Position numbers and translations under genes: made by a program
Shown: positions 7,811 to 22,325 of the stretch, one piece after another
Layout: the number at the start of each line of letters is the position of its first letter
Position numbering within the stretch: position 1 is the first letter of the stretch
From: Actinomycetota bacterium
GTDB taxonomy: Bacteria > Actinomycetota > UBA4738 > CALAEC01
Reading direction: 5' to 3'
Length of the DNA stretch: 43,318 nucleotides
Assembly: GCA_036833435.1 (NCBI GenBank)
Contig: DAITPV010000001.1
Location: forward strand, 1-43,318
Notes under the pieces: model-generated
Seen by the model: only the letters and a program-made list of their open reading frames with translations
Databases searched by the model: none
What the model was told of the DNA's origin: nothing

Positions 7811-7827
7811 CCCAACCGGGAGAAGCC

Positions 7828-9711
7828 TTGCCTAGACAGAGTCTCACCAAACCCGAGACTTGGCAGATCGCGGAACTTGAAGACTCCCTTGCCGACGTTC
7901 CACAGCGAAATAGACGACTCGAACTCCCCCGGTTTCAACGTTCGATAGTCTGGGACGAACCCCAGCAGAGGGATCTCATCGCATCGTTGCAGCAAGGCTA
8001 TCCGATCGGATCGCTTCTCTTGTACGAACGGGGAAGCGAGGCCGGTAACGTCAAGCGCTATCTTCTTGTAGATGGGCTTCAGCGTACGACTGCGATCAGG
8101 AACTACCTGCGCGAACCTTTGAACTTTGCGTCCATCCATCACCTTTCCCTCGAGCGTCTCGAGCCGGCCAAGGCGACGATCCAGGAGTTGCTGGGCGTGG
8201 CGGACGCTGGCGCTCTTAACCGAGCGATCGATAACTGGATGGTTGGAACAAGAACGCTCCGAGCGGCCGACGGATACTCATCCCATGGCTTCCTTGAGAC
8301 GCTCGCCAGTGAACTCCAGATTGGACCTCCTGATTCTCCGGAACTACTCTACGAAGCGATTGATCCCCTTCTTGACGAGATCCGCGAGCAAGTCGACATT
8401 CGACGGATGTCCTTGCCGATAATCATCTACGAGGGTGATGAAAGCCACCTACCAGACATCTTCGAGCGAATCAACGCGCGCGGAACCGCACTCAGCAAGT
8501 ACGACATCTACGCGGCCAGCTGGGTCGATCAGGAAACGCGAATCGAAAACACCAAAATACGGGATGCGATCGATGAGAAGTATGAGGAACTTCTTGAAAG
8601 CGGATACTCAATACATGGCTTGGAGCAGGATGGTGAGCGCGCATACAGTTTGTTCGAGTACCTCTTTGGGTTGGGTAAGGTGATCTCCCAGGAGTATCCC
8701 CGCCTCTTCTCTGCCAAATCAGATCCAACCGAAACCGAATCCATCGGCTTCACTCTGGTAACCGTGGTGAACCAGATGCGCCTTGCGGAGATGCCTCGCT
8801 TGCCCGGCCGTCTACCGCGCGACCCTCAGGGCCGAATTGATCCTTCCCAGTTCGAGGAGCCCCTCTTTGACGCCATCAACAGGGTGGATGAATGTCTAAG
8901 GCCCTTCTTGGGAATCGCCTTGAACCGGCGAACGGGACCTCCCTCGGTGGGCCACACCGAGTATCAAATTGCATCACTCATCGCTAGGGCACTTGCAGGA
9001 CGGTTCGTGTCCCGCACCTGGGAGGAACGCCGAGATTGGGAAGAAGAATGGGCGACTATGAGCACTAGCCTGCCTCAGCACTATCTCTATGACATCTTGT
9101 TGCAAAACTGGAGGGGCTCTGGAGATACCAGGCTTTTTGACATGACTTGGAGAGAGGAACCTGTAGGCACCTTCCGTCTCTCAGCCCACTACTCGCGCCC
9201 CATCCCTAGGAAAGAATGGGACGAGGCCCTAGGTCTCTGGTTTCGTGAGCAAACCCAACGCGAGCAACGGTCCCGTCCGAAAGTTCGAGCAGCAGACAAG
9301 GTCTTCCTCAGGTACGTCTACTCCGGGATCGTTAGTTACCTGCAAGATGCGCGCGACACGTTTGAGCTTGAGCATCTCTATCCCGTTAGCAGGCTCCGAA
9401 GTCTCATCCGTACGGATGAGCCAGGCTGGCCGATCAGCTCGGTGGCAAATCTCGCACTCTTCGACTGGATCCTGAACCGTGAGAAGTCGAAGCTGACTAT
9501 CCGAGAATACCTCGAGAGAATTGATGATGACACCGAACGAGGAAGGGTCGCCGATCGAGTCCGGAGTTTTCTGCTCTGTGAGATCCACGACGTGGAGATA
9601 CCTCGAGAGAATGCCACGGATGTCCTGACGCGTGAACAATACGAAAGCTTCCTGATACGTCGCTATGATCGGATGAAATCGCAGCTCTATGAGAATCTCG
9701 GGATTGGGTAA
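7828..9711 (+). CDS. GmrSD-like type IV (modification-dependent) restriction enzyme: N-terminal DUF262 (ParB-like) plus C-terminal DUF1524 His-Me finger nuclease
   Basis: N-terminus LPRFQRSIVWDEPQQRDLIASLQQGYPIGSLLLY and LLVDGLQRTTAI match the DGQQR-type DUF262 motif. C-terminus FELEHLYPVS...SVANLALFDWILNREKSKLT matches the DUF1524 H..P / NL..N pattern. TTG start 17 nt after the kgd stop. The lower-GC region begins here. Confidence 0.8.
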   Translation: MPRQSLTKPETWQIAELEDSLADVPQRNRRLELPRFQRSIVWDEPQQRDLIASLQQGYPIGSLLLYERGSEAGNVKRYLLVDGLQRTTAIRNYLREPLNFASIHHLSLERLEPAKATIQELLGVADAGALNRAIDNWMVGTRTLRAADGYSSHGFLETLASELQIGPPDSPELLYEAIDPLLDEIREQVDIRRMSLPIIIYEGDESHLPDIFERINARGTALSKYDIYAASWVDQETRIENTKIRDAIDEKYEELLESGYSIHGLEQDGERAYSLFEYLFGLGKVISQEYPRLFSAKSDPTETESIGFTLVTVVNQMRLAEMPRLPGRLPRDPQGRIDPSQFEEPLFDAINRVDECLRPFLGIALNRRTGPPSVGHTEYQIASLIARALAGRFVSRTWEERRDWEEEWATMSTSLPQHYLYDILLQNWRGSGDTRLFDMTWREEPVGTFRLSAHYSRPIPRKEWDEALGLWFREQTQREQRSRPKVRAADKVFLRYVYSGIVSYLQDARDTFELEHLYPVSRLRSLIRTDEPGWPISSVANLALFDWILNREKSKLTIREYLERIDDDTERGRVADRVRSFLLCEIHDVEIPRENATDVLTREQYESFLIRRYDRMKSQLYENLGIG

Positions 9712-9816
9712 GCGAACCTAAGCCTTCATTGTGACCACCCCGCGAATGGCATCGGCACCGACCGCGAGGCGTGTCAGCGGGTCTTTGAACAGCCACGAGC
9801 GTCGCTCCCTGAAGCA

Positions 9817-10887
9817 TTGACAGCGCAACCTCTTCGATTCGATCAAAAGGGATGGGAGGCAGCTACCACATGGCAGGGAAGGCCTCCGACACCCTCCCAG
9901 ACATGGGCCCTCCTCCAAGATCCCCGCCTACCTCGCCTGTTCCGAGAGCAAGTCGCGCGTTCTGCCGCAAAGTCACCCACCCTATTAGGGGCGTTCGCCC
10001 AATCCAGGGCTGCATCTGGGCGTTCCCAGCAAGAAATCATCAAGGATGTGCAAAGGCTGACCGGTCGAAGCATTCGGGTGCAAACGGCGGCCCGGCTCCT
10101 AACCACCCGGACACAGCTCGGCTCATGGAAGATTCGCTTCACTAACCTTGTATCAGGCCGTTTCACGGAGCTACTGTTCGAGCGATCCTTTCGACCAAAG
10201 CTTGAGTCCCTCCGTCTCCAGCTGCATGAAGAGACCGGCCAGCGAAACTACCTTGATTATCGGATTTCCGCCGACCCTGATTTTGAGATAGGGATCAATC
10301 TAAAGAACGCTGGTGTCCAGTATCGGGAGTCAGCCAAATGGGTCGGTCTGCATCCTGAGGATACCCTTCCGATTGCTACCTACAAGATTTTTGGCTCTGA
10401 AGTGGCCAGGATCCCCCCTCTCATCTACGTCTTTCTCGTGGACTGGACATTGCTCGAGCGACTACGAGCAATCTACTGGACGAAACTACTCAACGATCAG
10501 GAGAGAGCCGTCTTTCGCTTCATCGCAAGAGCAAGAGCCATTCCTCGAAATGTGGAGGATGCGTTCATTGACGGGACCGCAGGCCGCGGACTGGCCAGGT
10601 TGACTAGGCTGTTGGGCTACGCAAGCCTTGAACCTTCCGAGTTACCGTTTCGTGCCATCTCGGCGGGCAAGTGCCGTCGTATCTTCTATGACCATCACGA
10701 CCGAAGCCCGTACGTTTATAGGCGTCGAATGAACACGGATCCGAACGTTCACATAAGTGTCTCGGAGGAGACTCTGAGTTTCGCCGTGTTTGTTGACAAG
10801 TACCTCGCTTCGGCAAAGAGTCGCCGCGACCTTCTTACGGAGCTGCGCCACACCATCCACCTACGAGTCGTTTCTCCCAGTGTTTGA
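9817..10887 (+). CDS. hypothetical protein; positional candidate for the type II restriction endonuclease partner of the adjacent m5C methyltransferase
   Basis: 356-aa ORF convergent with the dcm-like gene; the two stops are 4 nt apart, a classic R/M layout. A possible PD-(D/E)xK-like stretch (LDYRISADPDFEIGINLKN) is weak. I recognise no family. The TTG start is uncertain. Confidence 0.4.
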   Translation: MTAQPLRFDQKGWEAATTWQGRPPTPSQTWALLQDPRLPRLFREQVARSAAKSPTLLGAFAQSRAASGRSQQEIIKDVQRLTGRSIRVQTAARLLTTRTQLGSWKIRFTNLVSGRFTELLFERSFRPKLESLRLQLHEETGQRNYLDYRISADPDFEIGINLKNAGVQYRESAKWVGLHPEDTLPIATYKIFGSEVARIPPLIYVFLVDWTLLERLRAIYWTKLLNDQERAVFRFIARARAIPRNVEDAFIDGTAGRGLARLTRLLGYASLEPSELPFRAISAGKCRRIFYDHHDRSPYVYRRRMNTDPNVHISVSEETLSFAVFVDKYLASAKSRRDLLTELRHTIHLRVVSPSV

Positions 10888-10891
10888 CTCT

Positions 10892-12001
10892 TCAAATGGC
10901 GACGAGTTCCCCCTGAACTCCCGACGGACGAAAACCCTCCTCGAGCTGATGCCGCATGGCGACCCCGATGGTCCGAGCGAGCGGGGGAGGTACTGCATTG
11001 CCTACTTGAACCTGAATCGCACGACGGGTTCCAGCGAATCGAAAATCGTCGGGGAATCCGTGAAGCCGCCTGAGTTCCGGAACGCGTAACCGTCGGTTCT
11101 CCCAGTGGAAGGGTCCAACGTACGGACCGGGCTGCGCCTGGATAGTGCTCGCGGGTCTCGATGGATCCAGCTTGAGTAGAAACGTCCAATACCTAGATCG
11201 CCACTCGAATATCGGGTGGGGATGCCCTTCGTGAGCCGTGAAGTAGAGATAGTTTCTTCCGGGAGGAACCCCCGGAAGAAGGTGCCCGAACTTGCCGCCA
11301 ACGACCTCCTCTGGCTCGGGCGACGTGACCAAGTCTTCAAACACTTGCCCCGACGTCACGTGCGGAAGCAAATCCCCCAAATTCTCGGGTGGGCGCCTAC
11401 GTTCGTGTTCACCCCAATGTGTGGGGGGTGGAAACCTCAGTGGTTGATTCTCTCTGGATCCGATTAGAAAAACACGCTGTCGGTTCTGCGGAACCCCGTA
11501 ATCAGCGGCGTTTAGCACGGCGGCAGTGAGCGAGTAGCCAAGCTTGCGAATACCTTCCTTCAGGCCCGTAAAGAAGGGTGAGGATTGATTACGGTAAGCG
11601 AGGCCAAACACATTCTCCATTACGAACGCTCGTGGCCGAAGAGCGTCCAAGAAGCGAAGATAGTCCCACAAAAGACCAGCGCGGGGGTCTCGCCCCTGTC
11701 TCTTGTATTCGAGGTGAAAACCCGACTTGGAGAAGGCAACACACGGAGGGCCTCCCAGAAGAAGGTCCACCTCGCCAATGGCCACGTCTAGATCCCGCAT
11801 GACCTGTTCGGGATCCAGCCGAGTAATGTCCTGGGGGCGTAAGTGGCCCAAGTCAGGGAAATACTTCCGGTTCAGATCAAGTGTCTCGACAGCTGTTTGC
11901 TCATTTTCGACCGAGTAGACGACTGAAAAACCCGCCTGCTCGAAACCCAGGTCAAGTCCTCCCGCTCCAGCAAAGAGGCTTACTGCTGATCGCTGCGTCA
12001 T
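10892..12001 (-). CDS. dcm: DNA (cytosine-5)-methyltransferase
   Basis: Motif I SLFAGAGGLDLGF, motif IV GGPPCVAFS, motif VI FVMENV, motif VIII QNRQRVFLIG and motif X GNAVPPPLA are all present. The ATG overlaps the vsr stop as ATGA. Confidence 0.92.
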   Translation of the reverse strand: MTQRSAVSLFAGAGGLDLGFEQAGFSVVYSVENEQTAVETLDLNRKYFPDLGHLRPQDITRLDPEQVMRDLDVAIGEVDLLLGGPPCVAFSKSGFHLEYKRQGRDPRAGLLWDYLRFLDALRPRAFVMENVFGLAYRNQSSPFFTGLKEGIRKLGYSLTAAVLNAADYGVPQNRQRVFLIGSRENQPLRFPPPTHWGEHERRRPPENLGDLLPHVTSGQVFEDLVTSPEPEEVVGGKFGHLLPGVPPGRNYLYFTAHEGHPHPIFEWRSRYWTFLLKLDPSRPASTIQAQPGPYVGPFHWENRRLRVPELRRLHGFPDDFRFAGTRRAIQVQVGNAVPPPLARTIGVAMRHQLEEGFRPSGVQGELVAI

Positions 12002-12447
12002 CTTGAAGCAATCCTCTGCCGTACCGCCTGCACGATGCGATCCGCCGCCTCCACGGGATCCTCATGCTCCCACACGCGGATCGGCATCCAGTCTGCTGCC
12101 ACGAGAAGGGCATCATTCCGTGAATCCCGGGCTCGATTCACCTGAATCTTGGTTCTCCAGTATTCAGCGTTCACCCGCGGAAAGGTGAAGTGTTTGGGAC
12201 AGCCATGCCAATAGCAGCCATCAACGAAGACAGCGACGCGAGCCTTTGCGAAAACGAGGTCCGCGGTACCAACGTCCACGAACGGCCGGCGGGCCACGCG
12301 ATAGCGAAGACCGGAACGATGAACCTGGGCTCTGATCGCCAGCTCCGGCCTCGTGTCCTTCTTGCGATTCCCTCTCATAACCGCACGCACTCCCGCTGAT
12401 GAGGCCCAAGGCACATATGGCTGAGGGGCTGCGCCCGTGAATGACAT
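11998..12447 (-). CDS. vsr: very short patch repair (T:G mismatch) endonuclease
   Basis: RKKDTRPELAIRAQVHRSGLRYRV...ADLVFAKARVAVFVDGCYWHGCPKH...NAEYWRTKI is the canonical Vsr pattern. Confidence 0.92.
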   Translation of the reverse strand: MSFTGAAPQPYVPWASSAGVRAVMRGNRKKDTRPELAIRAQVHRSGLRYRVARRPFVDVGTADLVFAKARVAVFVDGCYWHGCPKHFTFPRVNAEYWRTKIQVNRARDSRNDALLVAADWMPIRVWEHEDPVEAADRIVQAVRQRIASR

Positions 12448-12531
12448 CGTCGTGATTCTAAGTGCCTGGACTAGGCAGGCGCTAGCCCGATCCGGCGTTG
12501 CTTGCGGGACTTGTTAGCTATCAGGGCCTAG

Positions 12532-12560
12532 TTGACAAACGGCGCTTAGTTGGTTAAGGT
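12532..12560 (+). promoter_or_regulatory. putative sigma-70-type promoter for the 12591-17802 operon
   Basis: TTGACA (12532-12537), 17-nt spacer, TAAGGT (12555-12560). It is followed by the SD AGAGGAGGAGG (12578-12588) and the GTG start at 12591. It lies in the divergent gap between vsr and the DGQHR gene. Confidence 0.4.
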
Positions 12561-12590
12561 CCTCCCCCAAGACTCGCAGAGGAGGAGGCC

Positions 12591-13880
12591 GTGGCGGTTC
12601 AGAATTCGATCCCTTCGGGTTACGCGGAGACGGACGATTACATCGGAGTCGCACACCAGCAGGATCGGCTGCGGCTAGTCACGGTGCAGCTCCCATGGCC
12701 AGCACTAGTAAAAATGGTGAAGCTCCCCGATCCGAGCCGCCAAACCGACTACAACCGACCCCTGCGGCCCGGGCATGCTCAAAAATTCATGCAATACATC
12801 GATGTCGTGGATCAGCCCTATACGCCGCCGATTGCCCTCTTCACAGACCCTGCAAATCTGGACGTCCAAGAGATCAAAGGGCTTCCTCAGTCGATAGGCA
12901 ACGTCCGGTTCGTGCTGGCCAAGTTCATCCGCTCAGCCCGGGATCAAGTTCACATCCTCGACGGACAGCACCGCATCTTCGGGGGGCACCTCCTAGAAGC
13001 CAAGTACCAGGAGGACCTCGCAAGCGCCCGCGAGCAATATCGACGAGCTGAGAAGTTCGAAGGTACTGAACTCGTCGCTGAAGCCCGTGACCGGGTGCAG
13101 AGGATTCAAGACAAGATCGCCCGGTTTGGAAGCATGACTGTCACTGTGCAGATCGCCCTCACGGGGGATCGTGGGGTTGCAAAACAGATCTTCGCCGATG
13201 TCGCCGATAACGCGCTAGGAATTTCTCGTTCGATCCTAAGCGAGTTTTCCACACGATCCGCCTTCAATCGGGCTGCGCAGGAACTGGCCCAGAAGGATCT
13301 CGCCGGTGTGGTCGACAACGTCAAGGATCGGATGTCGCGATCAAACCCTCACTGGCTCAGCCTCAAGGACGTGGTCAATGTCGTGCAAGGCCTTGAACTG
13401 CCGCTTGCTAAGCGCTGGTCCCACAAACTAGAGGAAAAGCTGGACGAGGGAAGAATATACAAGCAAGGCGCGGTCTTTTTCGCGGGACTTGCGGAGGCGT
13501 TCCCCGACGTCCGCCTTGTTCTCGATGGCGAACTCAGCGGTCCAGATCTGCGACTCGGGGGGGAGCAACAGAGCCTGCTGGGCTCAACAACAATGATTCG
13601 AGTTCTAGCCTCGGCCTACCGGGTCCTACGTGACGGCGACGAACACCACGGCCCCTTGCAACATGACGAGATTGTTGGCTTCTTCGCCTCCCTACCGATG
13701 CAAGCTGGATTTACGGGAGAGACGAGGGAAGACGCCCAGCCATTGCTCGACGCCCGTTGGCTTGAGACAGGAAAGTTCAGCTACCCGTACGTGGCCCCTG
13801 TGGCTAGAACGCAGGACATCGAGGAACTGACCGAGTTCATCGTGGCATGGACTAGGGAACGAAGCGAGACCGAAACCTAG
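12591..13880 (+). CDS. DGQHR-domain (DndB-like, ParB-fold) protein
   Basis: ILDGQHRIFGG is the eponymous DGQHR motif of the DndB family. 429 aa, GTG start behind a strong SD. No dndA/C/D/E genes are present in the window. Confidence 0.7.
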   Translation: MAVQNSIPSGYAETDDYIGVAHQQDRLRLVTVQLPWPALVKMVKLPDPSRQTDYNRPLRPGHAQKFMQYIDVVDQPYTPPIALFTDPANLDVQEIKGLPQSIGNVRFVLAKFIRSARDQVHILDGQHRIFGGHLLEAKYQEDLASAREQYRRAEKFEGTELVAEARDRVQRIQDKIARFGSMTVTVQIALTGDRGVAKQIFADVADNALGISRSILSEFSTRSAFNRAAQELAQKDLAGVVDNVKDRMSRSNPHWLSLKDVVNVVQGLELPLAKRWSHKLEEKLDEGRIYKQGAVFFAGLAEAFPDVRLVLDGELSGPDLRLGGEQQSLLGSTTMIRVLASAYRVLRDGDEHHGPLQHDEIVGFFASLPMQAGFTGETREDAQPLLDARWLETGKFSYPYVAPVARTQDIEELTEFIVAWTRERSETET

Positions 13881-13895
13881 GGAAGGGAGGACGAT

Positions 13896-14276
13896 GTGTC
13901 GGACAGAAAGACGGTATTCATCGCCTTTGCCAAGGAAGACGAGGGGATCCGCAATCTATTCACCGGTCAACGTGTGCACCCTAAGACGCCCTTCGAATTC
14001 ATCGACATGGCAGTCAAGGAGCCCTACAAAAGCGAGTGGAAACAGAAGGTGCGTTCGCGAATCAAGCGCAGCGATGGTGTCATCGCGCTGGTCTCCTCGA
14101 ACACGCCGTCAGCAGATGGCGAACTCTGGGAGATCAAGTGTGCGGTCGAGGAAGACCAGCCGTTGGTCGGCATCTGGATCGAAGACAAGTACCGGACGAA
14201 GCCATCGGTGATGGGAACTACTGCATGCAAGAACTGGACCTGGCAAAACGTGGCTGATTTTATCGACAGCCTGTAA
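13896..14276 (+). CDS. ThsB-like TIR-like domain protein (DUF1863 / MTH538 TIR-like family)
   Basis: 126 aa. KTVFIAFAKEDEGIRNLFTGQ...TPFEFIDMAVKEPYKSEWKQKVRSRIKRSDGVIALVSSNT...GELWEIKCAVEEDQPLVGIWI follows the family pattern (FisF..eD, fef.D.s, W.....I..sd.vi.l.s..T, W-E-I..A). The putative catalytic Glu79 codon is at 14130-14132. GTG start with SD AGGGAGGA, 15 nt after the previous gene. Confidence 0.75.
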   Translation: MSDRKTVFIAFAKEDEGIRNLFTGQRVHPKTPFEFIDMAVKEPYKSEWKQKVRSRIKRSDGVIALVSSNTPSADGELWEIKCAVEEDQPLVGIWIEDKYRTKPSVMGTTACKNWTWQNVADFIDSL

Positions 14277-14286
14277 GGGAGACGTC

Positions 14287-15237
14287 GTGAAACGCGCGCT
14301 CCTGATCGGTGTAGACGAGTACACGAACTTCCCTACCTTGACGGGTTGCGTAAGTGACGTGCTCGCTCTGGAACCCCTTCTATCCCAAGACGAGGATGGG
14401 AGTCCCAATTTCGACTGTCAAGTTAATGCCAGCGTAGATGTGACAGAGCGGGATGAGCTTATCGAGGCGTTACGAAGTCTTTTCGCACCCGGAGCCGACA
14501 TAGCCCTCCTGTACTTCGCAGGTCACGGAGCTGAGATCGACGGCGACGTGGTCATTTGTTCAACGGATGGGACGACCTCCTCGCCAGGGATACCCCTCGC
14601 CCAGGTTCTCGGCTTCGTTCAATCCTCGTCCGTAGGGGAGGTCATTCTGCTGTTGGACTGTTGCTTCTCGGGAGCTGCGGGCGGCGTCCCTCAGCTCGGT
14701 CTTAGCACCGCGGCTATTCGTGACGGTGTATCGATCTTGGCGGCTAGTAGGCCGGAACAGACGGCCGCGGAGGCACCGACGGGGCGGGGAGCGTTTTCAA
14801 CGTACTTGTGCGGGGCTCTGGGAGGCGGCGCGGCCGATGTCGTTGGCAAGGTGACTCTCGCGGGGATATACGCCTATCTCTCCGAATCGTTTGGGGCGTG
14901 GGACCAGCGACCGACTTTCAAATCGAATGTCGACCGGCTTCACGAGATCCGTCGTTGTAGACCTGCGGTGCCCCTGCAGGAGTTACGTCAGCTGCCTGAG
15001 ATCTTTCCAAGTGCAGACGAACAAGTGTCGCTGGATCCATCGTACGAGCCTACTGAGGAACCCAAGGATGACGAACATGAGGCTGTCTTCGCAATTCTTC
15101 AACGGTGCCGCGCGGCGAAGCTTGTGGAGCCGGTCGGCCATGACCACATGTACTATGCAGCCCTCTACGGCCTTTCGTGTCGTCTAACACAGCTCGGAAA
15201 ACACTATTGGCGGCTGGCCGAGCAGGGTCGACTGTGA
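14287..15237 (+). CDS. caspase-like (peptidase C14 family) cysteine protease with an uncharacterised C-terminal domain
   Basis: ALLIGVDEYTNFPTLTGCVSD, then LLYFAGHGAE (catalytic His80) and ILLLDCCFSGAAG (catalytic Cys125/126), which is the caspase/metacaspase His-Cys dyad context. GTG start with SD AAGGGAG, 10 nt after the TIR gene stop. Confidence 0.8.
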   Translation: MKRALLIGVDEYTNFPTLTGCVSDVLALEPLLSQDEDGSPNFDCQVNASVDVTERDELIEALRSLFAPGADIALLYFAGHGAEIDGDVVICSTDGTTSSPGIPLAQVLGFVQSSSVGEVILLLDCCFSGAAGGVPQLGLSTAAIRDGVSILAASRPEQTAAEAPTGRGAFSTYLCGALGGGAADVVGKVTLAGIYAYLSESFGAWDQRPTFKSNVDRLHEIRRCRPAVPLQELRQLPEIFPSADEQVSLDPSYEPTEEPKDDEHEAVFAILQRCRAAKLVEPVGHDHMYYAALYGLSCRLTQLGKHYWRLAEQGRL

Positions 15238-15707
15238 CGGTTGTGGGTGCCACAGGGCACCAGCAGATTCCCGGACCAGCAATCGAGTTCGTTCGAACGA
15301 AGATTGGTTCCGTCCTCGATCAATCCGGTCAGTTCACGGGGGTCTGCTGTCTAGCCGCCGGGGCCGACCAGCTCTTTGCGCGGGCCGTACTAGAACGCGG
15401 AGGCTTCTTGCACGCGATAATCCCTTCAGAAGGATACGAGGCTACGTTTGCGAGCAAGACCGATCGCGACACATATGTGTCTCTGCTACAGCGAGCGGAC
15501 ATTGTCGAACGCTTGCCCTTCCCTAGACCAAGTGAGGACGCTTTTCTGGCAGGAGGAAAGCGGGTAGCAGACGAGGCAAATGTCATCGTGGCGATCTGGG
15601 ACGGAAAGCCTGCCCGAGGCAAAGGAGGAACCGCCGACGTGGTCGCTTACGCGCGTGAGCGTCGCAAGAGGGTCGTTGTAATCTGGCCCCATGGACTGGA
15701 TCGATAG
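15234..15707 (+). CDS. standalone SLOG-like (Smf/DprA-LOG superfamily, MoCo-carrier/YpsA-like) putative nucleotide-ligand-binding protein
   Basis: VTVVGATGHQQIPG (glycine-rich loop after strand 1), CLAAGADQLFARAVLERGG, and ANVIVAIWDGKPARGKGGTADVVAYARERRKRVVVI (GGT motif) fit the SLOG Rossmann pattern. I prefer the GTG at 15234, which overlaps the caspase stop as GTGA, over the track start at 15177, which lies inside the caspase gene. Confidence 0.55.
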   Translation: MTVVGATGHQQIPGPAIEFVRTKIGSVLDQSGQFTGVCCLAAGADQLFARAVLERGGFLHAIIPSEGYEATFASKTDRDTYVSLLQRADIVERLPFPRPSEDAFLAGGKRVADEANVIVAIWDGKPARGKGGTADVVAYARERRKRVVVIWPHGLDR

Positions 15708-15750
15708 GATCAACCGCGGGGAGGGGACCAGCTTGAAGGGAGCGCATCAC

Positions 15751-16122
15751 ATGCCGGGAGAAGGGCGAGAGATCTTGAAGCGTCCTTTCCTCTATCAATT
15801 CGCTGAACCTGTCTCCGGAGAGATCCGGAGCGATACGAGGATTACCAAAATGCCAGAGACCACCGACGATGAGGGCGGACGACGCAAGCATATCCAGCGA
15901 CGTCACGCGACGCCCTTCCTAACAAGAACCGCTGAAGTGGCGCCGGGGCCTGTGGCCAATCGAACAATACTCACGCGCGCACGCGAAACAACCGACGATG
16001 AGCCCCGACAACTACGGTGGCTGAGGAGCACGCCTTTTGTCCAGCAAGTCCCGAGTCTCGGGGCGCGAAAGTCCAGGGGCAGGACCATTGTCACCGAGGC
16101 TCGGGAGACTACCGACGACTGA
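15751..16122 (+). CDS. putative multi-core graspetide (omega-ester RiPP) precursor with three leader-plus-core repeats
   Basis: Three units share the same pattern: RPFLYQFAEPVSGEIRSDTRITKMPETTDDE, TPFLTRTAEVAPGPVANRTILTRARETTDDE and TPFVQQVPSLGARKSRGRTIVTEARETTDD*. The PF(L/V) segment resembles the microviridin PFFARFL leader helix. The core T-x-x-T-x-x-x-E-T-T-D-D-E resembles T-x-K-x-P-S-D-x-E-E. It lies immediately upstream of an ATP-grasp maturase. ATG at 15751 has SD GAAGGGAG; an alternative ATG at 15691 overlaps the SLOG gene end. Confidence 0.6.
   Translation: MPGEGREILKRPFLYQFAEPVSGEIRSDTRITKMPETTDDEGGRRKHIQRRHATPFLTRTAEVAPGPVANRTILTRARETTDDEPRQLRWLRSTPFVQQVPSLGARKSRGRTIVTEARETTDD
15781..16119 (+). 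repeat. three tandem in-frame coding repeats (about 30-31 codons each, at 15781-15873, 15910-16002 and 16030-16119) separated by Arg/Lys-rich linkers
   Basis: Alignment of the translated units is given above. The linkers are GGRRKHIQRRHA and PRQLRWLRS. At the DNA level, ccagagaccaccgacgatgag, cgcgaaacaaccgacgatgag and cgggagactaccgacgactga are related. Confidence 0.75.
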
Positions 16123-17089
16123 GCGAGACGCGGACAAGAAGCACAAGTCCAAGCCTACGATCTTGTTGGTGGCCCACGGAGTCGACGAGCACTCGTCTCA
16201 CCTCGAGTCTCTGCTTCGGGCGCGAGGCCACGCAAGGGTCACTCGGATTTCCACCGATATACTTCCGAACGGGGACTTAACCTGGTCCCCAGGAAAGAAC
16301 CTCATTCTCGGCGACGATCATGTTCCGCTTTACGGTGCGGGCCTATGGCGTCGACCAGGCTTTCCCTCGGTTTCGGACTATGCAAGTGAATTTCGGGATT
16401 TTGCCGTCTCAGAATGCCTAGATGCTTTCGAGGGAGCGGTCTTGGCCAATTCCATCACATGGCTGACACACCCATCCGTCCTGACATACGCAGAGCTGAA
16501 ACTGATCCAGCTCCAGGTCGCACGCCGCCTAGGCATCACGATCCCAGCCACCCTAGTGACTAACTCGGCCGATAAGGCAACTAGATTTGCCCAGAAGCAT
16601 CAGCAAGTCGTCGTCAAACCCGTCAGATATGGCCTCCTCAATAACGACGCCGCTCGCCCCCTCGTGGCATGGACTAGCTCGGTATCCGAGGAGGATCTTC
16701 AGGAACTCAAAGGGCCCCCAGTCATTGTCCAGGAACGAATCGACGCCGAAGCGCATTTGCGTGTCGTAACGATTGGCCAGCGCACGTTTGCCGCAGCCCT
16801 CCGGACTGCCGAACTCGACTGGCGGTCAGAACTCTCAAACCACGAGAGTTTCGCTCCCGTCGCTGATCTCGATCTAATGAGACTTCTTGAGGACCAGGCT
16901 CAGCGAGTCGCTCGCGTCCTCCAGCTTGGCTATTCAGCTCAGGATTGGGTTCTCGCACGAAGCGGTAAGTTGTTCTTCCTCGAGGCCAACCCCAACGGCC
17001 AATGGCTCTTCCTCGACGACGCGTTCTCCGGGCAGATCTCGGAGTTCCTGGCTGCAGAGCTTGAAGCCTTGGCGACCGCGGTCACATGA
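16037..17089 (+). CDS. ATP-grasp ribosomal peptide maturase (MvdC/MvdD-like macrocyclase)
   Basis: The sequence follows the pattern of RiPP ATP-grasp ligases: WRRPGFPS, AELKLIQLQVARRLGITIPATLVTN, VVVKPV, VIVQERIDAEAHLRVVTIG, LDWRSE and GYSAQDWVLARSGKLFFLEANPNGQWLFLD. The start is uncertain. TTG 16037 has a GAGGAG SD 8 nt upstream but overlaps precursor repeat 3 by 86 nt. TTG/GTG at 16163-16169 would give MLVAHG... without overlap but without a clear SD. Confidence 0.8.
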   Translation: MSSKSRVSGRESPGAGPLSPRLGRLPTTERDADKKHKSKPTILLVAHGVDEHSSHLESLLRARGHARVTRISTDILPNGDLTWSPGKNLILGDDHVPLYGAGLWRRPGFPSVSDYASEFRDFAVSECLDAFEGAVLANSITWLTHPSVLTYAELKLIQLQVARRLGITIPATLVTNSADKATRFAQKHQQVVVKPVRYGLLNNDAARPLVAWTSSVSEEDLQELKGPPVIVQERIDAEAHLRVVTIGQRTFAAALRTAELDWRSELSNHESFAPVADLDLMRLLEDQAQRVARVLQLGYSAQDWVLARSGKLFFLEANPNGQWLFLDDAFSGQISEFLAAELEALATAVT

Positions 17090-17802
17090 ACGAGACCTGG
17101 CGGCGGCTTCGCGCATACCTGACGGGTAACTCGGAGGTTGCCGAGGACTTGGCGATCCCGGCTGTCGAGGACGTTCCTTGGGTTCAGGCGGCCGCGCAGG
17201 ACCCCGAAAGTGCTGACTACGCAGTCGAGGCAGCGAAACGCAGCGCGGATTTTGCGAATTCAGCCGTCAGTCAGGTTCAAGACAAGGCCTCTGCCCTGCT
17301 AAGCGTCACCCTGGTCCTGATTCCGTTTGCAGCCGGAGCCTTGGCTGTCGCCTCGTCTCGAGAGAACTCGTGGCTTCGTGTGATCTCGATTGGATGTTTC
17401 GCCTTCGTAGCCCTCGCCCTGGCGTGGGCGGCTTTGCGTGCGTTCTTAGCGTCCGGATCAGTACTTGGAGGAGGACTCAACATCGCGCGCCTTTCACGCT
17501 CAGGTGATGACTCCGCTGCATCGCTAAAGACCAGGGAGGCCCAGACATGGCACTGGTCTGCGCAGGTCGCGATGGAGGTCGCCACTCGCAGATCTGGAGA
17601 CCTGTTTTCTGCACGGCGGGCCCTCATCATCGCGCTTGGATTTGCCGGCCTGGGGACCTTCGCTCTCTCCGTATCCGAGGAGAGAGCTGGCCAACCTCCG
17701 ACTGTGCCGATCGAGCGCGAATCACCGTCTGGAATGAAGACGCACAGCGATTGCGCAGTCGCAGCAACAGGGGCCTCTCCACCGGTTTGCTTGGCTCCCT
17801 GA
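17086..17802 (+). CDS. 3-TM membrane protein, unknown function (candidate membrane effector or exporter/immunity component)
   Basis: The ATG overlaps the ATP-grasp stop as ATGA. A soluble helical N-terminus ends in VQDKASALL and runs into TM1 (LSVTLVLIPFAAGALAV). TM2 is ISIGCFAFVALALAWAALRAFL and TM3 is ALIIALGFAGLGTFALSV. This topology recalls SLATT/Pycsar-type TM effectors, but that is impression only. Confidence 0.55.
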   Translation: MNETWRRLRAYLTGNSEVAEDLAIPAVEDVPWVQAAAQDPESADYAVEAAKRSADFANSAVSQVQDKASALLSVTLVLIPFAAGALAVASSRENSWLRVISIGCFAFVALALAWAALRAFLASGSVLGGGLNIARLSRSGDDSAASLKTREAQTWHWSAQVAMEVATRRSGDLFSARRALIIALGFAGLGTFALSVSEERAGQPPTVPIERESPSGMKTHSDCAVAATGASPPVCLAP

Positions 17803-18180
17803 TCCAAGGCCTGACCGATTCTTTTCTTCAGGTCCTCAGGTTTCCTCACCGGTCCGAGCGGTCGGAAGTTCGTAGTCCTCCGAAGGGTTTCTCAGTCATG
17901 CTCCGGACGCTTGCCGACGATCCAACCTTACAACGCCCTCCTTCTACGAAATCTTTCTCGCGCTCAGCTTCCGGCGGGTGGTGAATGGCGAGTCTATTGA
18001 TTGCATTCCTCTTCCCTCAGATATACAGGCGAACGTCGACCGAATCGTCCGGACCGCTAGCGAAAAAATCTCATCTGCTCTCGCCAGGGAAGCAATTGCT
18101 GCGGAAATTGAAGCGGAGGCCACGTAGGTAATCTCGTCTGGGAAGCTGCGTCACCTCATTACTCTTGCACCTGGCCTGCT

Positions 18181-18648
18181 TTAGTCGTTTCTACCCTGCC
18201 TCTCCAGGTAGATGGGACTTCTAAGGAACCGCCTCGGATGTCGACCTGCAAACATGAGTTCGTGGCGCCGGATCAGGGTCCCTTGCTTGTTCACAAGGTT
18301 GTGTCCTTCGGCGAGAAAATGCCTAATCAATGCGCGCTCCACCAACCTAAGGACTGTATTTAGTTGCTGGCCCTGGCGAGGTCGAACGACACCGGCCAAC
18401 ACGATTCTGGCTCCGGTTTGGGCGGTTCTCAGGTTCTCCACCAGATTGACGTTGTTCAGTTGCTGGTCTACTCGCCTTCGAATCGAACCGCTCGCTTGCC
18501 CTATGTAGATTGCCTCGTAGCGGTTGCCCCAATGCCGGGCGAAGACGTAAACGCCGGGTCTCGTTGGAAGGCTAATGAGGTCGACCGCATAGCCGATACC
18601 CTCTCGTCTGAGGGGAATCGGGCGACTCCACTCAACATAGAGTTTCAT
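18181..18648 (-). CDS. small GIY-YIG-like nuclease domain protein
   Basis: PGVYVFARHWGNRYEAIYIGQASGSIRRRVDQ matches GIY-x10-YIG followed by the conserved Arg. Downstream LVERALIRHF...HNLVNKQG supplies the Glu and Asn positions. It is the last low-GC gene of the island. Confidence 0.55.
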   Translation of the reverse strand: MKLYVEWSRPIPLRREGIGYAVDLISLPTRPGVYVFARHWGNRYEAIYIGQASGSIRRRVDQQLNNVNLVENLRTAQTGARIVLAGVVRPRQGQQLNTVLRLVERALIRHFLAEGHNLVNKQGTLIRRHELMFAGRHPRRFLRSPIYLERQGRND

Positions 18649-18689
18649 CTTGATCTGAGCATAGGGCGCTCAGTTTAGCCTCGCCGTAG

Positions 18690-19110
18690 GTGGACATCCT
18701 TGGGAGCCTCGGGAGTTCCGACTCCAGTCATACAGTCGGCATCTTGTAGACTTCGACCTGAGAGCGGAACTCATTTCTTCGAGGACTTGTCGACGCTCGT
18801 CGTCGGTTCTTCCCGAGGAACAGCACGTCGCGGATGAGGACCTCGCCCATTGACTTGCCGACCACGTCGGCTCGGTGCCGTCGTCGCTGGTCAAGCGCAG
18901 GTCGATCAACGGCATGGCCAGCCATTGCTTGGCCCGCAGGCGAGCACGCTTGATTCTCCGGCAGCTCGGCGAGGCCCCCCTTCACCCACGACAGCGAGCC
19001 TACCTGCCCGGTCTCGGTCCCCTCCATCTGCATGAACATAGGCCTGACCTGGGCGAATACGTAGATGTCAGAGGAGGTAGCTGCGGGCACGCTCACCATG
19101 ATGCGACGCT
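18690..19110 (-). pseudogene. frameshifted internal remnant of an AMP-dependent acyl-CoA ligase, paralogous to 34649-36274
   Basis: Three minus-strand frames together spell RIMVS..., [54 protein letters not shown] and GKSMGEVLIR. The intact ligase reads LRMVTSGG...[66 protein letters not shown]. At least two frame changes are needed, and both gene ends are missing. The boundaries given are approximate. Confidence 0.75.
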
Positions 19111-19232: not shown

Positions 19233-22200
19233 GTGGCGTCCAACCACCGTACGCTCTTCACCGTGGAGACTCGCAAGACTGTCACCTTTGTGTTCAACGA
19301 CGTAGTCGGGTCGACCTCACTCGGCGAACAACTCGATCCGGAGCCTCTTCGGCGGGTGATGACCACTTACTTTGAGAGGATGCGGGCTGTCCTCGAGCGG
19401 CATGGGGGCAACGTGGAGAAGTACATCGGGGACGCGATCGTGGCCGTGTTCGGGATCCCCGAGGTGCACGAGGATGATGCCCTTCGGGCCGTCCGGGCGG
19501 CTTCCGAGATGCGCTCCACGCTCGATGAACTCAACCGCGAGCTCGAGGACCGGCACGGCGTCCGGATCGAGGCACGGACCGGGGTCAACACCGGCGAGGT
19601 ACTGGCCCAGGAGACTCAGGCCGACACCCCCCTGACCGCGGACGTGACGAACACCGCCGCCCGGCTCGAGCAGGCCGCCGGGACCGGCGAGATCCTCATC
19701 GGCGAGTCCACCTACCGACTGGTCCGGGACGCCGTCACCGTCGAGCCCGCCGGCCCACTGGAACTTAAGGGCAAGGCCGCCCCCCAGACCGCCTGGCGGC
19801 TCCTCGAAATCACTCCAGAGGCGCCCGGCGTGGCCCGGAGGCTAGACTCCCCCATCGTCGGGCGGGACCGCGAGCTCTCCCTCCTCCGAGAAGCGTTCGA
19901 TCGAGCCACCCAAGGGCCCTCCTGTCGGCTAGTAACCGTCATCGGCCCCCCCGGCGTCGGAAAGACCCGCCTCAGCGCGGAGCTCATCTCCTGGCTGGAG
20001 GGCCGGGCCCGTGTCCTCCAGGGCCGTTGCCTCCCCTACGGAGATGGGATCACCTACTGGCCCGTTGCCGAGGTGATCCGGGAGGCCGGCGCCATCAGAG
20101 AGGAGGAGGCCGCCGAGGAGGCCGTCGCCAAGATCGCCTCCCTGTGCGGCGACGATGAGGACACCGCGACGATCGCGGAGCGGCTGACCTCGGTCATCGG
20201 CCTGACCGACAACCTCGCCCCGCCGCAGGAGACGTTCTGGGCGGTGCGCCGGCTCCTCGAGGCCATGGCCCGGCACGAGCCGCTGGCGGTGGTGTTCGAC
20301 GACATCCACTGGGGCGAGGCCACGTTTCTCGACCTGGTCGAGTACCTGGCCGGATGGAGCACCGGTGCGCCGATCCTCCTCCTCTGTCTGACCCGCCCCG
20401 ACCTCATGGACTCCAGGCCCGCGTGGGGCACCGCCGTCCCCGACGCGACCTCCATCCGGCTCGACCCGCTCACCGAAGAGGACAGCGAGCGGCTGATCGA
20501 CAACCTACTGGGCCGGGCTCCCCTCGACGAAGAGGTCCGGGCCCGGATCCGCCTAGCCGCGGAGGGCAACCCACTGTTCGTGGAGGAGATCCTCCGAATG
20601 CTCGTCGACGACGGGCTCCTCCAGCTCGACGACGGCCGGTGGGGTGCCGCGGGCGATCTCGAGTCCATCTCCATCCCCCCCACGATCAGCGCGCTGCTGT
20701 CCGCCCGGCTGGAGCGCCTGTCGCGCGAAGAGCTGGCGGTGGTCCAGCGGGCCGCGGTGGTGGGGAAGGTGTTCTGGTGGGGAGCGGTGGCCGAGCTCTC
20801 CCCCGTAGCCGAACAGTCCACGGTGGGGGGTCACCTCCAGGCCCTGGTCCGCAAGGAGCTGGTCCGTCCCGATCGTTCCCGGTTCACAGACGAAGACGCT
20901 TTCCGCTTCAGCCACATCCTCATCCGGGACGCGGCATACGCGGGGACGACCAAAGAGCTCCGAGCCGAGCTCCACGAGGGGTTCGCCGACTGGGTGGAGC
21001 GACGAACGGCCGACCGGATGTCCGAGTTCGAGGAGGTCGTCGGGTATCACCTGGAGCAGGCTCATCGATGCCGAACGGAGCTCGGCCTCGACGGCGAGGC
21101 GATCCCTGGACTGGCCGCGCGGGCGGCGCGCCATCTGGCCTCGGCCGGAGAGCGGGCCCTGAAGCGCGTGGACATCCACGCGGCGATCAACCTCCTGTCT
21201 CGAGCGACGCAGCTCATGGACCGGGGTGACTCCGAGCGCGTGGAGCTCCTCATCGACCTGGTGGAGGCCCTCATGGAGGCCGGCCACATGGACCAGGCGC
21301 GAGAGGTGGTCGAGGAGGCCGCCGCCGAAGTCGAGGCCCGGTCCGACGATCGCCTGGCCGCGCACGTGCTCATGGGCCGGTGGTACATCCGACGGAGCGA
21401 GGGACCGGGGGAGTTCGAGCCCGCCGAGCGTGATGGCCTCGGCGCGGCGGAGGTCTTCCGAACTCATGGAGACGAGCTGGGATTGGCCCGGGCCTGGCAG
21501 ATGGTGGGTGTGGCGAGGTGGTGGGCCGGTCGGGCCGGAGACGCGGAGGACGCGCTAGAGCGGGCCCGTCAGCACGCCCGAGCCGCCGGCGACCCCCGGA
21601 AGGAAGCGGAGAGCCTGCTAACCCTCAGCGCCGTCGTGGCGCAGGGTCCCCGCCCCACCGAGGAGGGGGCCAGCTGGGCGGAAGCGATCCTGGAGGAGCA
21701 CGCGGGCACCCGCACCGTGGAGGCAGCCATGCTCCATACGCTCGCGCACATCCGGGCCTGGCAGGGCCAGTTCGACGAGGCTCGGAGCCTCGCCCGCCGG
21801 TACCGGGAGATCCTCCGGGAGAACGGCCAGGAGGCCAACTGGGCCGACTCCTCAGAGTGCGAGGGTGACGTCCTCCTCATGGCCGGCGACGTCGAGGGAG
21901 CGATCCGGCTCATGGAGGAGGGCCAGCGCCGGTTCGAGGAACTGAATATCACCGACACCACGATCCTCCCCTTCCTGGCCAACACGCTGGTGGCCGCGGG
22001 TCGCTGGGAGGAGGCCGAAGCTCCCGCCCTTCGGTCCATCGAGGGAGGTCATCCCCTGTGGAGAACGCTGGGGCAGACCGTCCTCGCCAGGATACGGGCC
22101 CGCCGGGGGAGAGGAGAGGAGGCCGAGCGGTTGGCTCGGGAGGCGCTCGCCGCCACCCGGAGGTCCGACTATCCGCTCTGGAAGGGCCGCGCGGCTCTGG

Positions 22201-22325
22201 GCCTCGCCGAGGTCCTCGAGCTCCTCGGGAAGGACGGAGAGGTCACCTCGCTCCGCGAGTACGCCCGCCAGGAGTTCGAGCGGAAAGGTGCCAAGGTGCG
22301 GGCCGAGCAGCTCGGCTTCTCCTGA
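19233..22325 (+). CDS. class III adenylate/guanylate cyclase domain fused to a STAND/AAA ATPase and TPR-like C-terminal region
   Basis: VTFVFNDVVGSTSLGEQL...VEKYIGDAIVAVFG...GVNTGEV is cyclase-type. VIGPPGVGKTRL is a Walker A, and VVFDDIHW is a Walker B-like motif. A long helical repeat region follows. Confidence 0.88.
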   Translation: MASNHRTLFTVETRKTVTFVFNDVVGSTSLGEQLDPEPLRRVMTTYFERMRAVLERHGGNVEKYIGDAIVAVFGIPEVHEDDALRAVRAASEMRSTLDELNRELEDRHGVRIEARTGVNTGEVLAQETQADTPLTADVTNTAARLEQAAGTGEILIGESTYRLVRDAVTVEPAGPLELKGKAAPQTAWRLLEITPEAPGVARRLDSPIVGRDRELSLLREAFDRATQGPSCRLVTVIGPPGVGKTRLSAELISWLEGRARVLQGRCLPYGDGITYWPVAEVIREAGAIREEEAAEEAVAKIASLCGDDEDTATIAERLTSVIGLTDNLAPPQETFWAVRRLLEAMARHEPLAVVFDDIHWGEATFLDLVEYLAGWSTGAPILLLCLTRPDLMDSRPAWGTAVPDATSIRLDPLTEEDSERLIDNLLGRAPLDEEVRARIRLAAEGNPLFVEEILRMLVDDGLLQLDDGRWGAAGDLESISIPPTISALLSARLERLSREELAVVQRAAVVGKVFWWGAVAELSPVAEQSTVGGHLQALVRKELVRPDRSRFTDEDAFRFSHILIRDAAYAGTTKELRAELHEGFADWVERRTADRMSEFEEVVGYHLEQAHRCRTELGLDGEAIPGLAARAARHLASAGERALKRVDIHAAINLLSRATQLMDRGDSERVELLIDLVEALMEAGHMDQAREVVEEAAAEVEARSDDRLAAHVLMGRWYIRRSEGPGEFEPAERDGLGAAEVFRTHGDELGLARAWQMVGVARWWAGRAGDAEDALERARQHARAAGDPRKEAESLLTLSAVVAQGPRPTEEGASWAEAILEEHAGTRTVEAAMLHTLAHIRAWQGQFDEARSLARRYREILRENGQEANWADSSECEGDVLLMAGDVEGAIRLMEEGQRRFEELNITDTTILPFLANTLVAAGRWEEAEAPALRSIEGGHPLWRTLGQTVLARIRARRGRGEEAERLAREALAATRRSDYPLWKGRAALGLAEVLELLGKDGEVTSLREYARQEFERKGAKVRAEQLGFS

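Follow-up and report, generated by a model that had tools for sequence, protein, structure and literature searches.

How does a peptide precursor with several cores present each of them to its modifying enzyme? Positions 15751-17802 of a 43,318-nucleotide stretch of DNA from an Actinomycetota bacterium (NCBI GenBank assembly GCA_036833435.1, contig DAITPV010000001.1; this whole stretch is referred to as the window) raise this question, because a short open reading frame (ORF) lying there just ahead of an ATP-grasp gene repeats not only a putative core but also the leader-like element preceding it. We propose that the region is probably a three-gene cassette for a graspetide (omega-ester peptide), composed of a precursor built of autonomous leader-core modules, an ATP-grasp macrocyclase and a dedicated small membrane protein. 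Its parts, with coordinates counted in the window, are as follows.

15735-15742, forward strand: Shine-Dalgarno-like GAAGGGAG, read from the sequence, 8 nucleotides 5' of ATG15751
15751-16122, forward strand: precursor peptide gene, 123 residues plus stop, read as an ORF and carrying no gene call in the public protein collection
15784-15873, forward strand: unit 1, PFLYQFAEPVSGEIRSD plus core TRITKMPETTDDE, with Pro at -17 from the first core Thr
15913-16002, forward strand: unit 2, PFLTRTAEVAPGPVANR plus core TILTRARETTDDE, with Pro at -17, matched by the unit hidden Markov model (HMM)
16033-16119, forward strand: unit 3, PFVQQVPSLGARKSRGR plus core TIVTEARETTDD and then the stop codon, with Pro at -17, matched by the unit HMM
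16037-16162, forward strand: 5' extension of the longest ATP-grasp ORF, probably untranslated from TTG16037, with TTG16088 as a possible start
16163-17089, forward strand: ATP-grasp ligase (graspetide synthetase), conserved part of 308 residues, assigned by HMM, PDB sequence search and fold
17086-17802, forward strand: partner membrane protein, 238 residues, about three predicted transmembrane helices and an invariant DLFxARR, its ATG overlapping the ligase stop (ATGA)

Translation of the precursor from ATG15751 gives MPGEGREILKRPFLYQFAEPVSGEIRSDTRITKMPETTDDE GGRRKHIQRRHATPFLTRTAEVAPGPVANRTILTRARETTDDE PRQLRWLRSTPFVQQVPSLGARKSRGRTIVTEARETTDD, followed by the stop codon. The frame is open on the forward strand from 15682, and ATG15751 rather than ATG15691 was taken as the start because related precursors begin 4-11 residues before their first Pro-hydrophobic-hydrophobic (P-h-h) element. 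Three units of 29-30 residues then follow, each consisting of P-F-(L/V), exactly 14 residues and T-x2-T-x3-E-T-T-D-D(-E), with the Pro placed 17 residues ahead of the first core Thr in all three; the three leader-plus-core units proposed by an earlier, sequence-only reading of this DNA were thus found where it had placed them. The leader-like elements PFLYQF, PFLTRT and PFVQQV all contain the P-h-h motif. Pairwise identity among the units is 11-13 of 29 residues (38-45%), while repetition at the DNA level is limited to the ETTDD(E) segment (86-93% over 14 nucleotides). Since only these codons repeat in the DNA, the repeats appear to be old and held at the protein level rather than the result of a recent duplication. 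Unit 3, which ends the gene, fits the family unit consensus ..PFL...A....G...GRT..T....ETTDD. Searching the window with the unit HMM found no second precursor, and the peptide gave no matches in Pfam, NCBIfam or PADLOC. Its exact sequence, from either ATG, is absent from a collection of 15 billion proteins, indicating that the precursor is unannotated. A promoter and terminator scan around the cassette returned nothing beyond shuffle expectation.

The repeats are not peculiar to this locus. A ligase homologue search of 5.8 billion proteins returned about 58 relatives (E below 1e-45, 39-54% identity), nearly all of them metagenomic, and 15 loci were compared (the window, three metagenome-assembled genomes (MAGs) from Actinomycetota, Chloroflexia and Limnocylindrales, two metagenome contigs and nine contigs reached by exact protein look-up). 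A small ORF lies immediately 5' of the ligase gene in 15 of the 15 loci with upstream sequence, their ligases being 42-53% identical; these ORFs hold one to four cores each, 36 in total, and a partial precursor is additionally present in locus L068. The 36 cores conform to T-x2-T-x3-5-E-(T/S)-(T/S)-D-(D/E), with the spacing before Glu being x3 in 15, x4 in 19 and x5 in two. Pro stands exactly at -17 in 28 of them, compared with an overall Pro frequency of 7% and at most 11 Pro at any other upstream position, and the P-h-h form (PFL, PYL, PWL, PIL and similar) is found there in 27. Given that Pro occupies -17 in 28 of the 36 cores, leader-like element and core together constitute the repeated unit across the family. 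Both the peptide ORF, found 5' of the homologous ATP-grasp genes in all close loci with upstream sequence, and the repeats, kept at the protein level with P-h-h at a fixed 17 residues, are therefore conserved, on two of the points by which the sequence-only reading had proposed to stand or fall. Gene order, the repeats and, across the family, their conservation and fixed spacing are established.

Reiteration of the element is the rule in this family but not obligatory. All three window cores have it, and eight of the 36 family cores lack a P-h-h element of their own, namely cores one and three in both L152 and L153, the middle pair in L148, the middle one in L069 and, in L002, the first, which has Met in place of Pro. 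Outside the element, linker residues are unconserved; the strongly basic linkers that had been pointed out in the window are real there and specific to it, with no counterpart kept in the relatives. Matches to the unit HMM are confined to ORFs 5' of close ligases, except for a weak one (E 1.2e-4) before the distant ligase of L011. The next ligase clade out (36-40% identity; L004-L012, L018 and L011) comes from Microbacteriaceae, Streptomyces and Nanopelagicaceae, and its precursors, about 250-600 nucleotides 5' of the ligase match, read ...SLFAELASYPQSVVDGVRGTSTITETIESSDTDE..., ...RTTTMAVETTDGDPFCL and ...GRTTMTKARPETTDEGNLTALFEVAGFPLP. Their cores (GTSTITETIESSDTDE, RTTTMAVETTDGD, GRTTMTKARPETTDE) are of the window style, but each has one leader and one core, and these precursors may represent single-unit ancestors of the multi-unit family.

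The enzyme encoded next to the precursor was characterised by profile, sequence and structure comparison. Among NCBIfam models, the window ligase matches TIGR04187 (2e-47), MvdC (5e-32) and MvdD (6.5e-32), all under their curated cut-offs; for TIGR04187 (GRASP_SAV_5884) it scores 161.9 bits and its close homologue P0004 170.5 bits, neither reaching the curated cut-off of 350. A PDB sequence search gave MdnC first (3e-26), followed by MdnB, AMdnB, 9bou (PruB), CdnC and, weakly, PsnB (7e-6). An AlphaFold2 (AF2) model built from alignment A1, with a predicted local distance difference test score (pLDDT) of 88, was searched with Foldseek and led to CdnC, MdnC, AMdnB, PruB, MdnB and PsnB (E from 1e-24 to 1e-16), with target-normalised template modelling scores to the graspetide synthetases of 0.73-0.82; all solved graspetide synthetases in the PDB (E from 5e-24 to about 1e-14) rank over RimK, LysX and ArgX. 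HMM matches, PDB sequence search and Foldseek ranking make membership of the graspetide synthetase family solid, so that both family and fold of the ligase are established and the graspetide-type assignment of the sequence-only reading holds. By contrast, assignment to one named subfamily is not solid, because 162 bits fall well below the TIGR04187 cut-off.

The third gene lies directly 3' of the ligase gene, often with an ATGA overlap, in 15 close-ligase loci, which are all those with readable downstream sequence. An exhaustive search of 1.84 billion proteins gathered 58 representatives of the membrane-protein family and found no link to a known family, and no Pfam match was obtained. With the membrane protein as query, a word-indexed homologue search recovered nothing but the protein itself, and with a profile only four proteins, while Foldseek against the PDB with its AF2 model, which is of moderate quality (pLDDT 68.8), gave nothing below E 0.1. 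The PADLOC PycTM models matched the window protein weakly (8e-5, 0.032 and 0.065), and only one or two of 12 family members match any one model. No membrane protein of the window type was detected 3' of the ligase in the next clade out (L004-L012, L018, L011). At L116 (5845-6864), where the ligase is 31% identical, the downstream ORF matches the membrane-protein profile weakly (E 1.6e-6), and because of this match the partnership may extend past the close clade. Variants of the cassette were also seen: L050 (6001-6798) and L124 (5001-5798) look decayed, retaining only the last approximately 63 ligase residues (56% identity) before an intact membrane gene, and at L147 (5894-6613) the partner membrane gene is split in two fragments.

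How does this architecture compare with known graspetides? The general graspetide leader motif has been given as Phhx(1,2)h, and cluster 13 (thuringinin; Lee groups 3, 5 and 6) as having repeated cores after one shared leader (Makarova et al. 2022, PMC8939145). In thuringinin each repeat carries two esters (PMC12291112), and its precursor TgnA reads MYRPYIAKYVEE...GPDTTIVTETIENADPDEY...DPDTTIHTFTVENNDTDEH...GPETTRITKTLENIDPDEYYS (Makarova 2022 supplement). The likeness to the window is considerable. The thuringinin leader has RPYIAKYVE where unit 1 has RPFLYQFAE, and thuringinin cores such as TRITKTLENIDPDE and TTRITKTLENIDPDE share with window core TRITKMPETTDDE both the T-x2-T-x3-E-x2-D spacing and the tandem arrangement; all three window cores agree with the thuringinin-type spacing T-x2-T-x3-E-x2-D(-x-D). 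This spacing is said to be the formal 'group 3 motif' of the Lee grouping. The sequence-only reading had likened PFLYQFA to the PFFARFL helix of microviridin leaders: a recognition-like element is indeed present, but it is nearer to the thuringinin RPYIAKYVE and to Phhx(1,2)h than to PFFARFL specifically. The thuringinin cluster (TgnA/TgnB, group 3, 'Branch_Thuringinin') likewise combines a precursor, a single ATP-grasp ligase and an uncharacterised membrane protein, and plesiocin clusters contain such a protein too.

The differences are equally clear. In thuringinin, a single N-terminal leader precedes the first core by about 43 residues and none accompanies the later cores, whereas in the window the element occurs three times. 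The thuringinin gene order is ligase, membrane protein, precursor, and the cluster occurs in Bacillota, as opposed to the high-GC Actinomycetota and Chloroflexota MAGs of the window family (GC, guanine plus cytosine). The ligase of B. thuringiensis HS18-1 is 28% identical to that of the window (E 2e-33), which is not clearly closer than MdnC, and a 361-residue ORF at L154 (2916-4001), assumed to be the Makarova cluster 18 protein, gave an hhalign probability of 0.1% against profile A2. In the public annotation of that locus (L154, plasmid pHS18-2, NZ_CP012101.1), the thuringinin-type ligase at 1735-2916 (TIGR04187 8.6e-51) is labelled 'PH domain-containing protein'.

Other characterised systems are less similar. 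Plesiocin (PsnA/PsnB, group 2), AMdnA and chryseoviridin resemble the window in that one ligase of common fold cyclises several tandem cores, but they use a single leader and other core motifs (TTxxxxEE; TxKxPSD). The actinobacterial fuscimiditide/TIGR04187 (SAV_5884) type provides the best NCBIfam model for the window ligase, and fuscimiditide has an RPFG leader element and Thr-Asp esters; it differs in its single long leader and single stem-loop core, and the window is without a PIMT methyltransferase. Microviridin (group 1) differs in PFFARFL, TxKxPSD and the use of both MdnB and MdnC, compared with one ligase, a Lys-free core and another leader in the window. Precursors of the cyanobactin PatE type and the cyclotide Oak type flank each core with its own short recognition sequence and iterate the whole module; this is an analogy of architecture only, as enzymes and chemistry are unrelated.

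A literature search brought up no natural graspetide described as having reiterated leaders; where multiple leaders do occur in the graspetide literature, they serve engineering only (PMC13003496). The fixed -17 spacing in the window and its family, set beside known multi-core graspetides that have a single leader, bears out the earlier remark that repetition of the whole recognition element is unusual. A 2026 RODEO survey counts 43 groups and 21,584 predicted graspetides. Text searches for the core motif in the accessible parts of the Makarova 2022 and Carter 2026 supplements gave only thuringinin-type or unrelated peptides, with the gaps in those files limiting what this absence means. Groups 34 and 35 of Carter 2026, which have repeat-containing precursors, were considered and are different peptides. 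The window family is best described, from its sequences, as having a thuringinin-like core and leader grammar together with a separate ligase clade, another partner protein and a reiterated leader-like element.

Based on these comparisons, the following pathway is proposed. By analogy with MdnC, PsnB, CdnC and thuringinin, the ligase would bind the P-F-L element and thereby place the core 17 residues downstream in its active site. It would then use ATP to activate Glu and Asp side-chain carboxylates, and upstream Thr hydroxyls would attack them to form side-chain macrolactones, again as in the characterised enzymes. Each unit would most likely acquire two nested rings (T1-D11 and T4-E8), amounting to approximately six esters in all, although the invariant T9/T10 and D12/E13 would permit more. 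The units would be processed largely independently, because each brings its own docking element. The membrane protein is predicted to be translationally coupled to the ligase and is presumed to serve export, immunity or as the partner of the peptide. By analogy with other characterised graspetides, the product would most likely be a multivalent protease inhibitor.

Several points weigh against this proposal. We infer ester formation and ring topology from analogy with other systems. The ligase reaches only about half of the TIGR04187 cut-off (162 versus 350 bits) and is 28% identical to the thuringinin-branch enzyme. Eight family cores have no leader element of their own; the ligase can therefore probably modify such cores too, and the claim that each unit is autonomous is weakened accordingly. 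The cassette has no conserved peptidase or transporter, which leaves maturation and export unexplained. In the ligase gene, no canonical start codon occurs between 16088 and 16163, though 16121-16162 looks coding in the ligase frame. Finally, the family may already be listed in the large RODEO data set, which was available in part.

The cassette could instead make a graspetide in which only the first P-F-L has a leader role, the internal P-F-(L/V) elements being linker or mature structure (serving, for example, in folding, as a cleavage signal or in target binding) rather than docking sites. Such an arrangement would readily accommodate the eight cores that keep perfect core motifs while having no P-h-h of their own, and there is precedent for it in plesiocin, thuringinin and AMdnA, which are processed from a single leader (PMC12291112), and in ThfB, which modifies engineered tandem cores from one leader. 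It fits less well with the internal elements matching the N-terminal one in both pattern and exact 17-residue spacing, with this internal pattern being the generic graspetide leader motif, or with the linker residues beyond the element being unconserved. We regard a leader role restricted to the first element as unlikely, and retain the reading of the precursor as a series of leader-core modules.

A second alternative concerns what the cassette is for and arises from its surroundings. It lies in a low-GC island (7800-19000), with 55-60% GC compared with 66-71% in the flanks, and the flanking chromosome includes an actinobacterial-type fused 2-oxoglutarate dehydrogenase. A tRNA scan found no tRNA genes in the window, and no integration site was identified. 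The other genes recognised in the island are listed below.

7828-9711: GmrSD
10892-12001, reverse strand: C5 DNA methylase
12591-13880: DGQHR/DndB-like protein
13896-14276: ThsB-like TIR protein
14287-15237: caspase of the EACC1-associated type
15177-15707: orf176
18181-18648, reverse strand: possible GIY-YIG-like ORF, with very weak matches only

The product of orf176 has neither a Pfam match nor a PDB sequence match, and it may be SLOG-like. Each of two paralogues encoded just outside the island (19233-22325 and 24014-26632) joins an adenylate/guanylate cyclase domain to a STAND ATPase and TPR repeats. Elsewhere in the window, 874-3834 encodes a 986-residue S8 subtilase with C-terminal RTX repeats.

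In such a neighbourhood, the cassette might be a mobile conflict or defence module whose esterified peptide stays inside the cell as a protease-resistant inhibitor of, or bait for, a caspase-like or phage protease, with the membrane protein as effector. The company of GmrSD, the C5 methylase, the DGQHR protein, the ThsB-like TIR and the caspase is what suggests it, and in other family loci the flanks hold toxin-antitoxin genes, an integrase, DUF87 or HATPase_c_3. Moreover, the TIR-caspase-orf176 trio of the window (13896-15707) also adjoins the cassette in L069 (1126-3020, reverse strand), where it is divergently oriented on the opposite strand, with 63, 44 and 49% identity, and the lack of a conserved exporter or leader peptidase and the PycTM matches of the membrane protein (8e-5 at best) point the same way. 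The trio is, however, missing from about 13 other loci, while the PycTM matches are weak and confined to few members. Furthermore, thuringinin and plesiocin clusters also come with an uncharacterised membrane protein, and small RiPP (ribosomally synthesised and post-translationally modified peptide) cassettes are often found in variable islands. Among viral contigs only distant ligases (28-38% identity) were found and no close family member. The earlier suggestion of a link to the neighbouring C14 protease is therefore met by one recurrence beside the cassette and by absence from most loci, and the support for a functional link between cassette and caspase is suggestive but thin.

A defence role of this kind is improbable in our estimate. 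In its fuller form, the multivalent esterified peptide would act as inhibitor, decoy or sensor substrate for the TIR-caspase-orf176 system or for a phage protease, the effector role downstream would fall to the membrane protein, and the reiterated modules would provide a polyvalent, independently matured bait; we give this version slightly less credence still. The reading as a graspetide cassette of leader-core modules is kept in what follows.

A third alternative concerns the boundary between the first two genes. The longest ligase ORF spans 16037-17089 (350 residues), and as the sequence-only reading noted, its frame is open from TTG16037 with GAGGAG 8 nucleotides upstream, so that a true start there would overlap unit 3 by 86 nucleotides. 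The spacing of GAGGAG is ideal, the public gene call is the 350-residue version, and no canonical start lies just 5' of strand beta1. Ligase homologues are 305-331 residues long, their conservation starts at strand beta1 (ILLVAHGVDEH, residue 42 of the long ORF), and they begin 0-27 residues ahead of it with short, unconserved extensions; the initial 14-21 positions of the window extension find no matching residues in any of 18 aligned homologues. Codon-usage log-odds over 16037-16087 are -9.4 bits in the ligase frame and -1.3 bits in the peptide frame, and over 16088-16120 they are -8.8 bits in the ligase frame versus +8.1 bits in the peptide frame, the ligase frame thus being disfavoured throughout 16037-16120. 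Over 16121-16162, the ligase frame scores +10.2 bits (+4.7 with island-only training) and the peptide frame -1.7 bits. In the AF2 model, pLDDT is below 50 at residues 1-4, 8-16 and 18-35, averaging 42-43 per block in residues 1-30; the first strand is formed by residues 41-45, with no predicted structure before residue 41. As for GAGGAG itself, it sits inside the codons for W-L-R-S.

Across the compared loci, strand beta1 starts 1-70 nucleotides past the peptide stop codon, ligase starts that can be pinned down lie at -26 to +52 nucleotides relative to this stop, and where an ATG is available the precursor-ligase overlap is at most about 26 nucleotides. Nine loci have a ligase frame that opens less than 75 nucleotides 5' of the peptide stop, in six of them at or after it, and an 86-nucleotide overlap is therefore impossible there. 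Homologue N-termini, codon usage and the structure model thus favour a later start. Of the two possibilities raised by the sequence-only reading, a long overlap or a later unmarked start, the second is supported by these data and by the locus comparison, while the 86-nucleotide overlap is unlikely; TTG16037 is the least likely ligase start despite its GAGGAG. The start most likely lies either at TTG16088, which has GGGGCAGGA upstream and overlaps the precursor gene by 35 nucleotides, or at TTG16163, TTG16166 or GTG16169. Little or no overlap with unit 3 therefore results, and the public 350-residue call is probably 17-42 codons too long. Around TTG16088 and the GGGGCAGGA stretch, two CCGAGNCTCGG palindromes 43 nucleotides apart (16049-16106) can form a 13-bp RNA stem, which appears in minimum free energy and centroid structures with a region z-score of only -1.6. 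In L001 (5962-6013) and L150 (3827-3938), no ATG, GTG or TTG is present in the ligase frame between the ORF opening and strand beta1; this suggests that these ligases initiate at a rare codon or by reinitiation past the stop of the precursor, and the window is similar between 16088 and 16163.

That the precursor might be a chance ORF with its repeats a compositional artefact, as the missing gene call and an overall codon-usage score near zero would allow, is effectively refuted by homologous repeated peptides with invariant positions in 15 loci including the window, plus the partial one in L068, and by a shuffle test on ETTDD, which is present three times in the precursor; a 5-mer repeated at least that often turned up in only 18 of 200,000 shuffles that preserved composition.

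Characterised multivalent graspetides (plesiocin, thuringinin, chryseoviridin, AMdnA) rely on one N-terminal leader for several cores. If a docking element is truly repeated 17 residues before most cores, this family would represent a second way to build multi-core RiPP precursors, namely by fusing leader-core modules. For engineering, where the field now repositions and multiplies leaders by design (PMC13003496), the family would give very short leader-plus-core cassettes of about 30 residues. Taken together, these results delineate a small and rare ligase clade with a private, unannotated membrane partner, found in Actinomycetota and Chloroflexota MAGs and often in defence islands, and the clade raises the testable question of what graspetides do for their producers.

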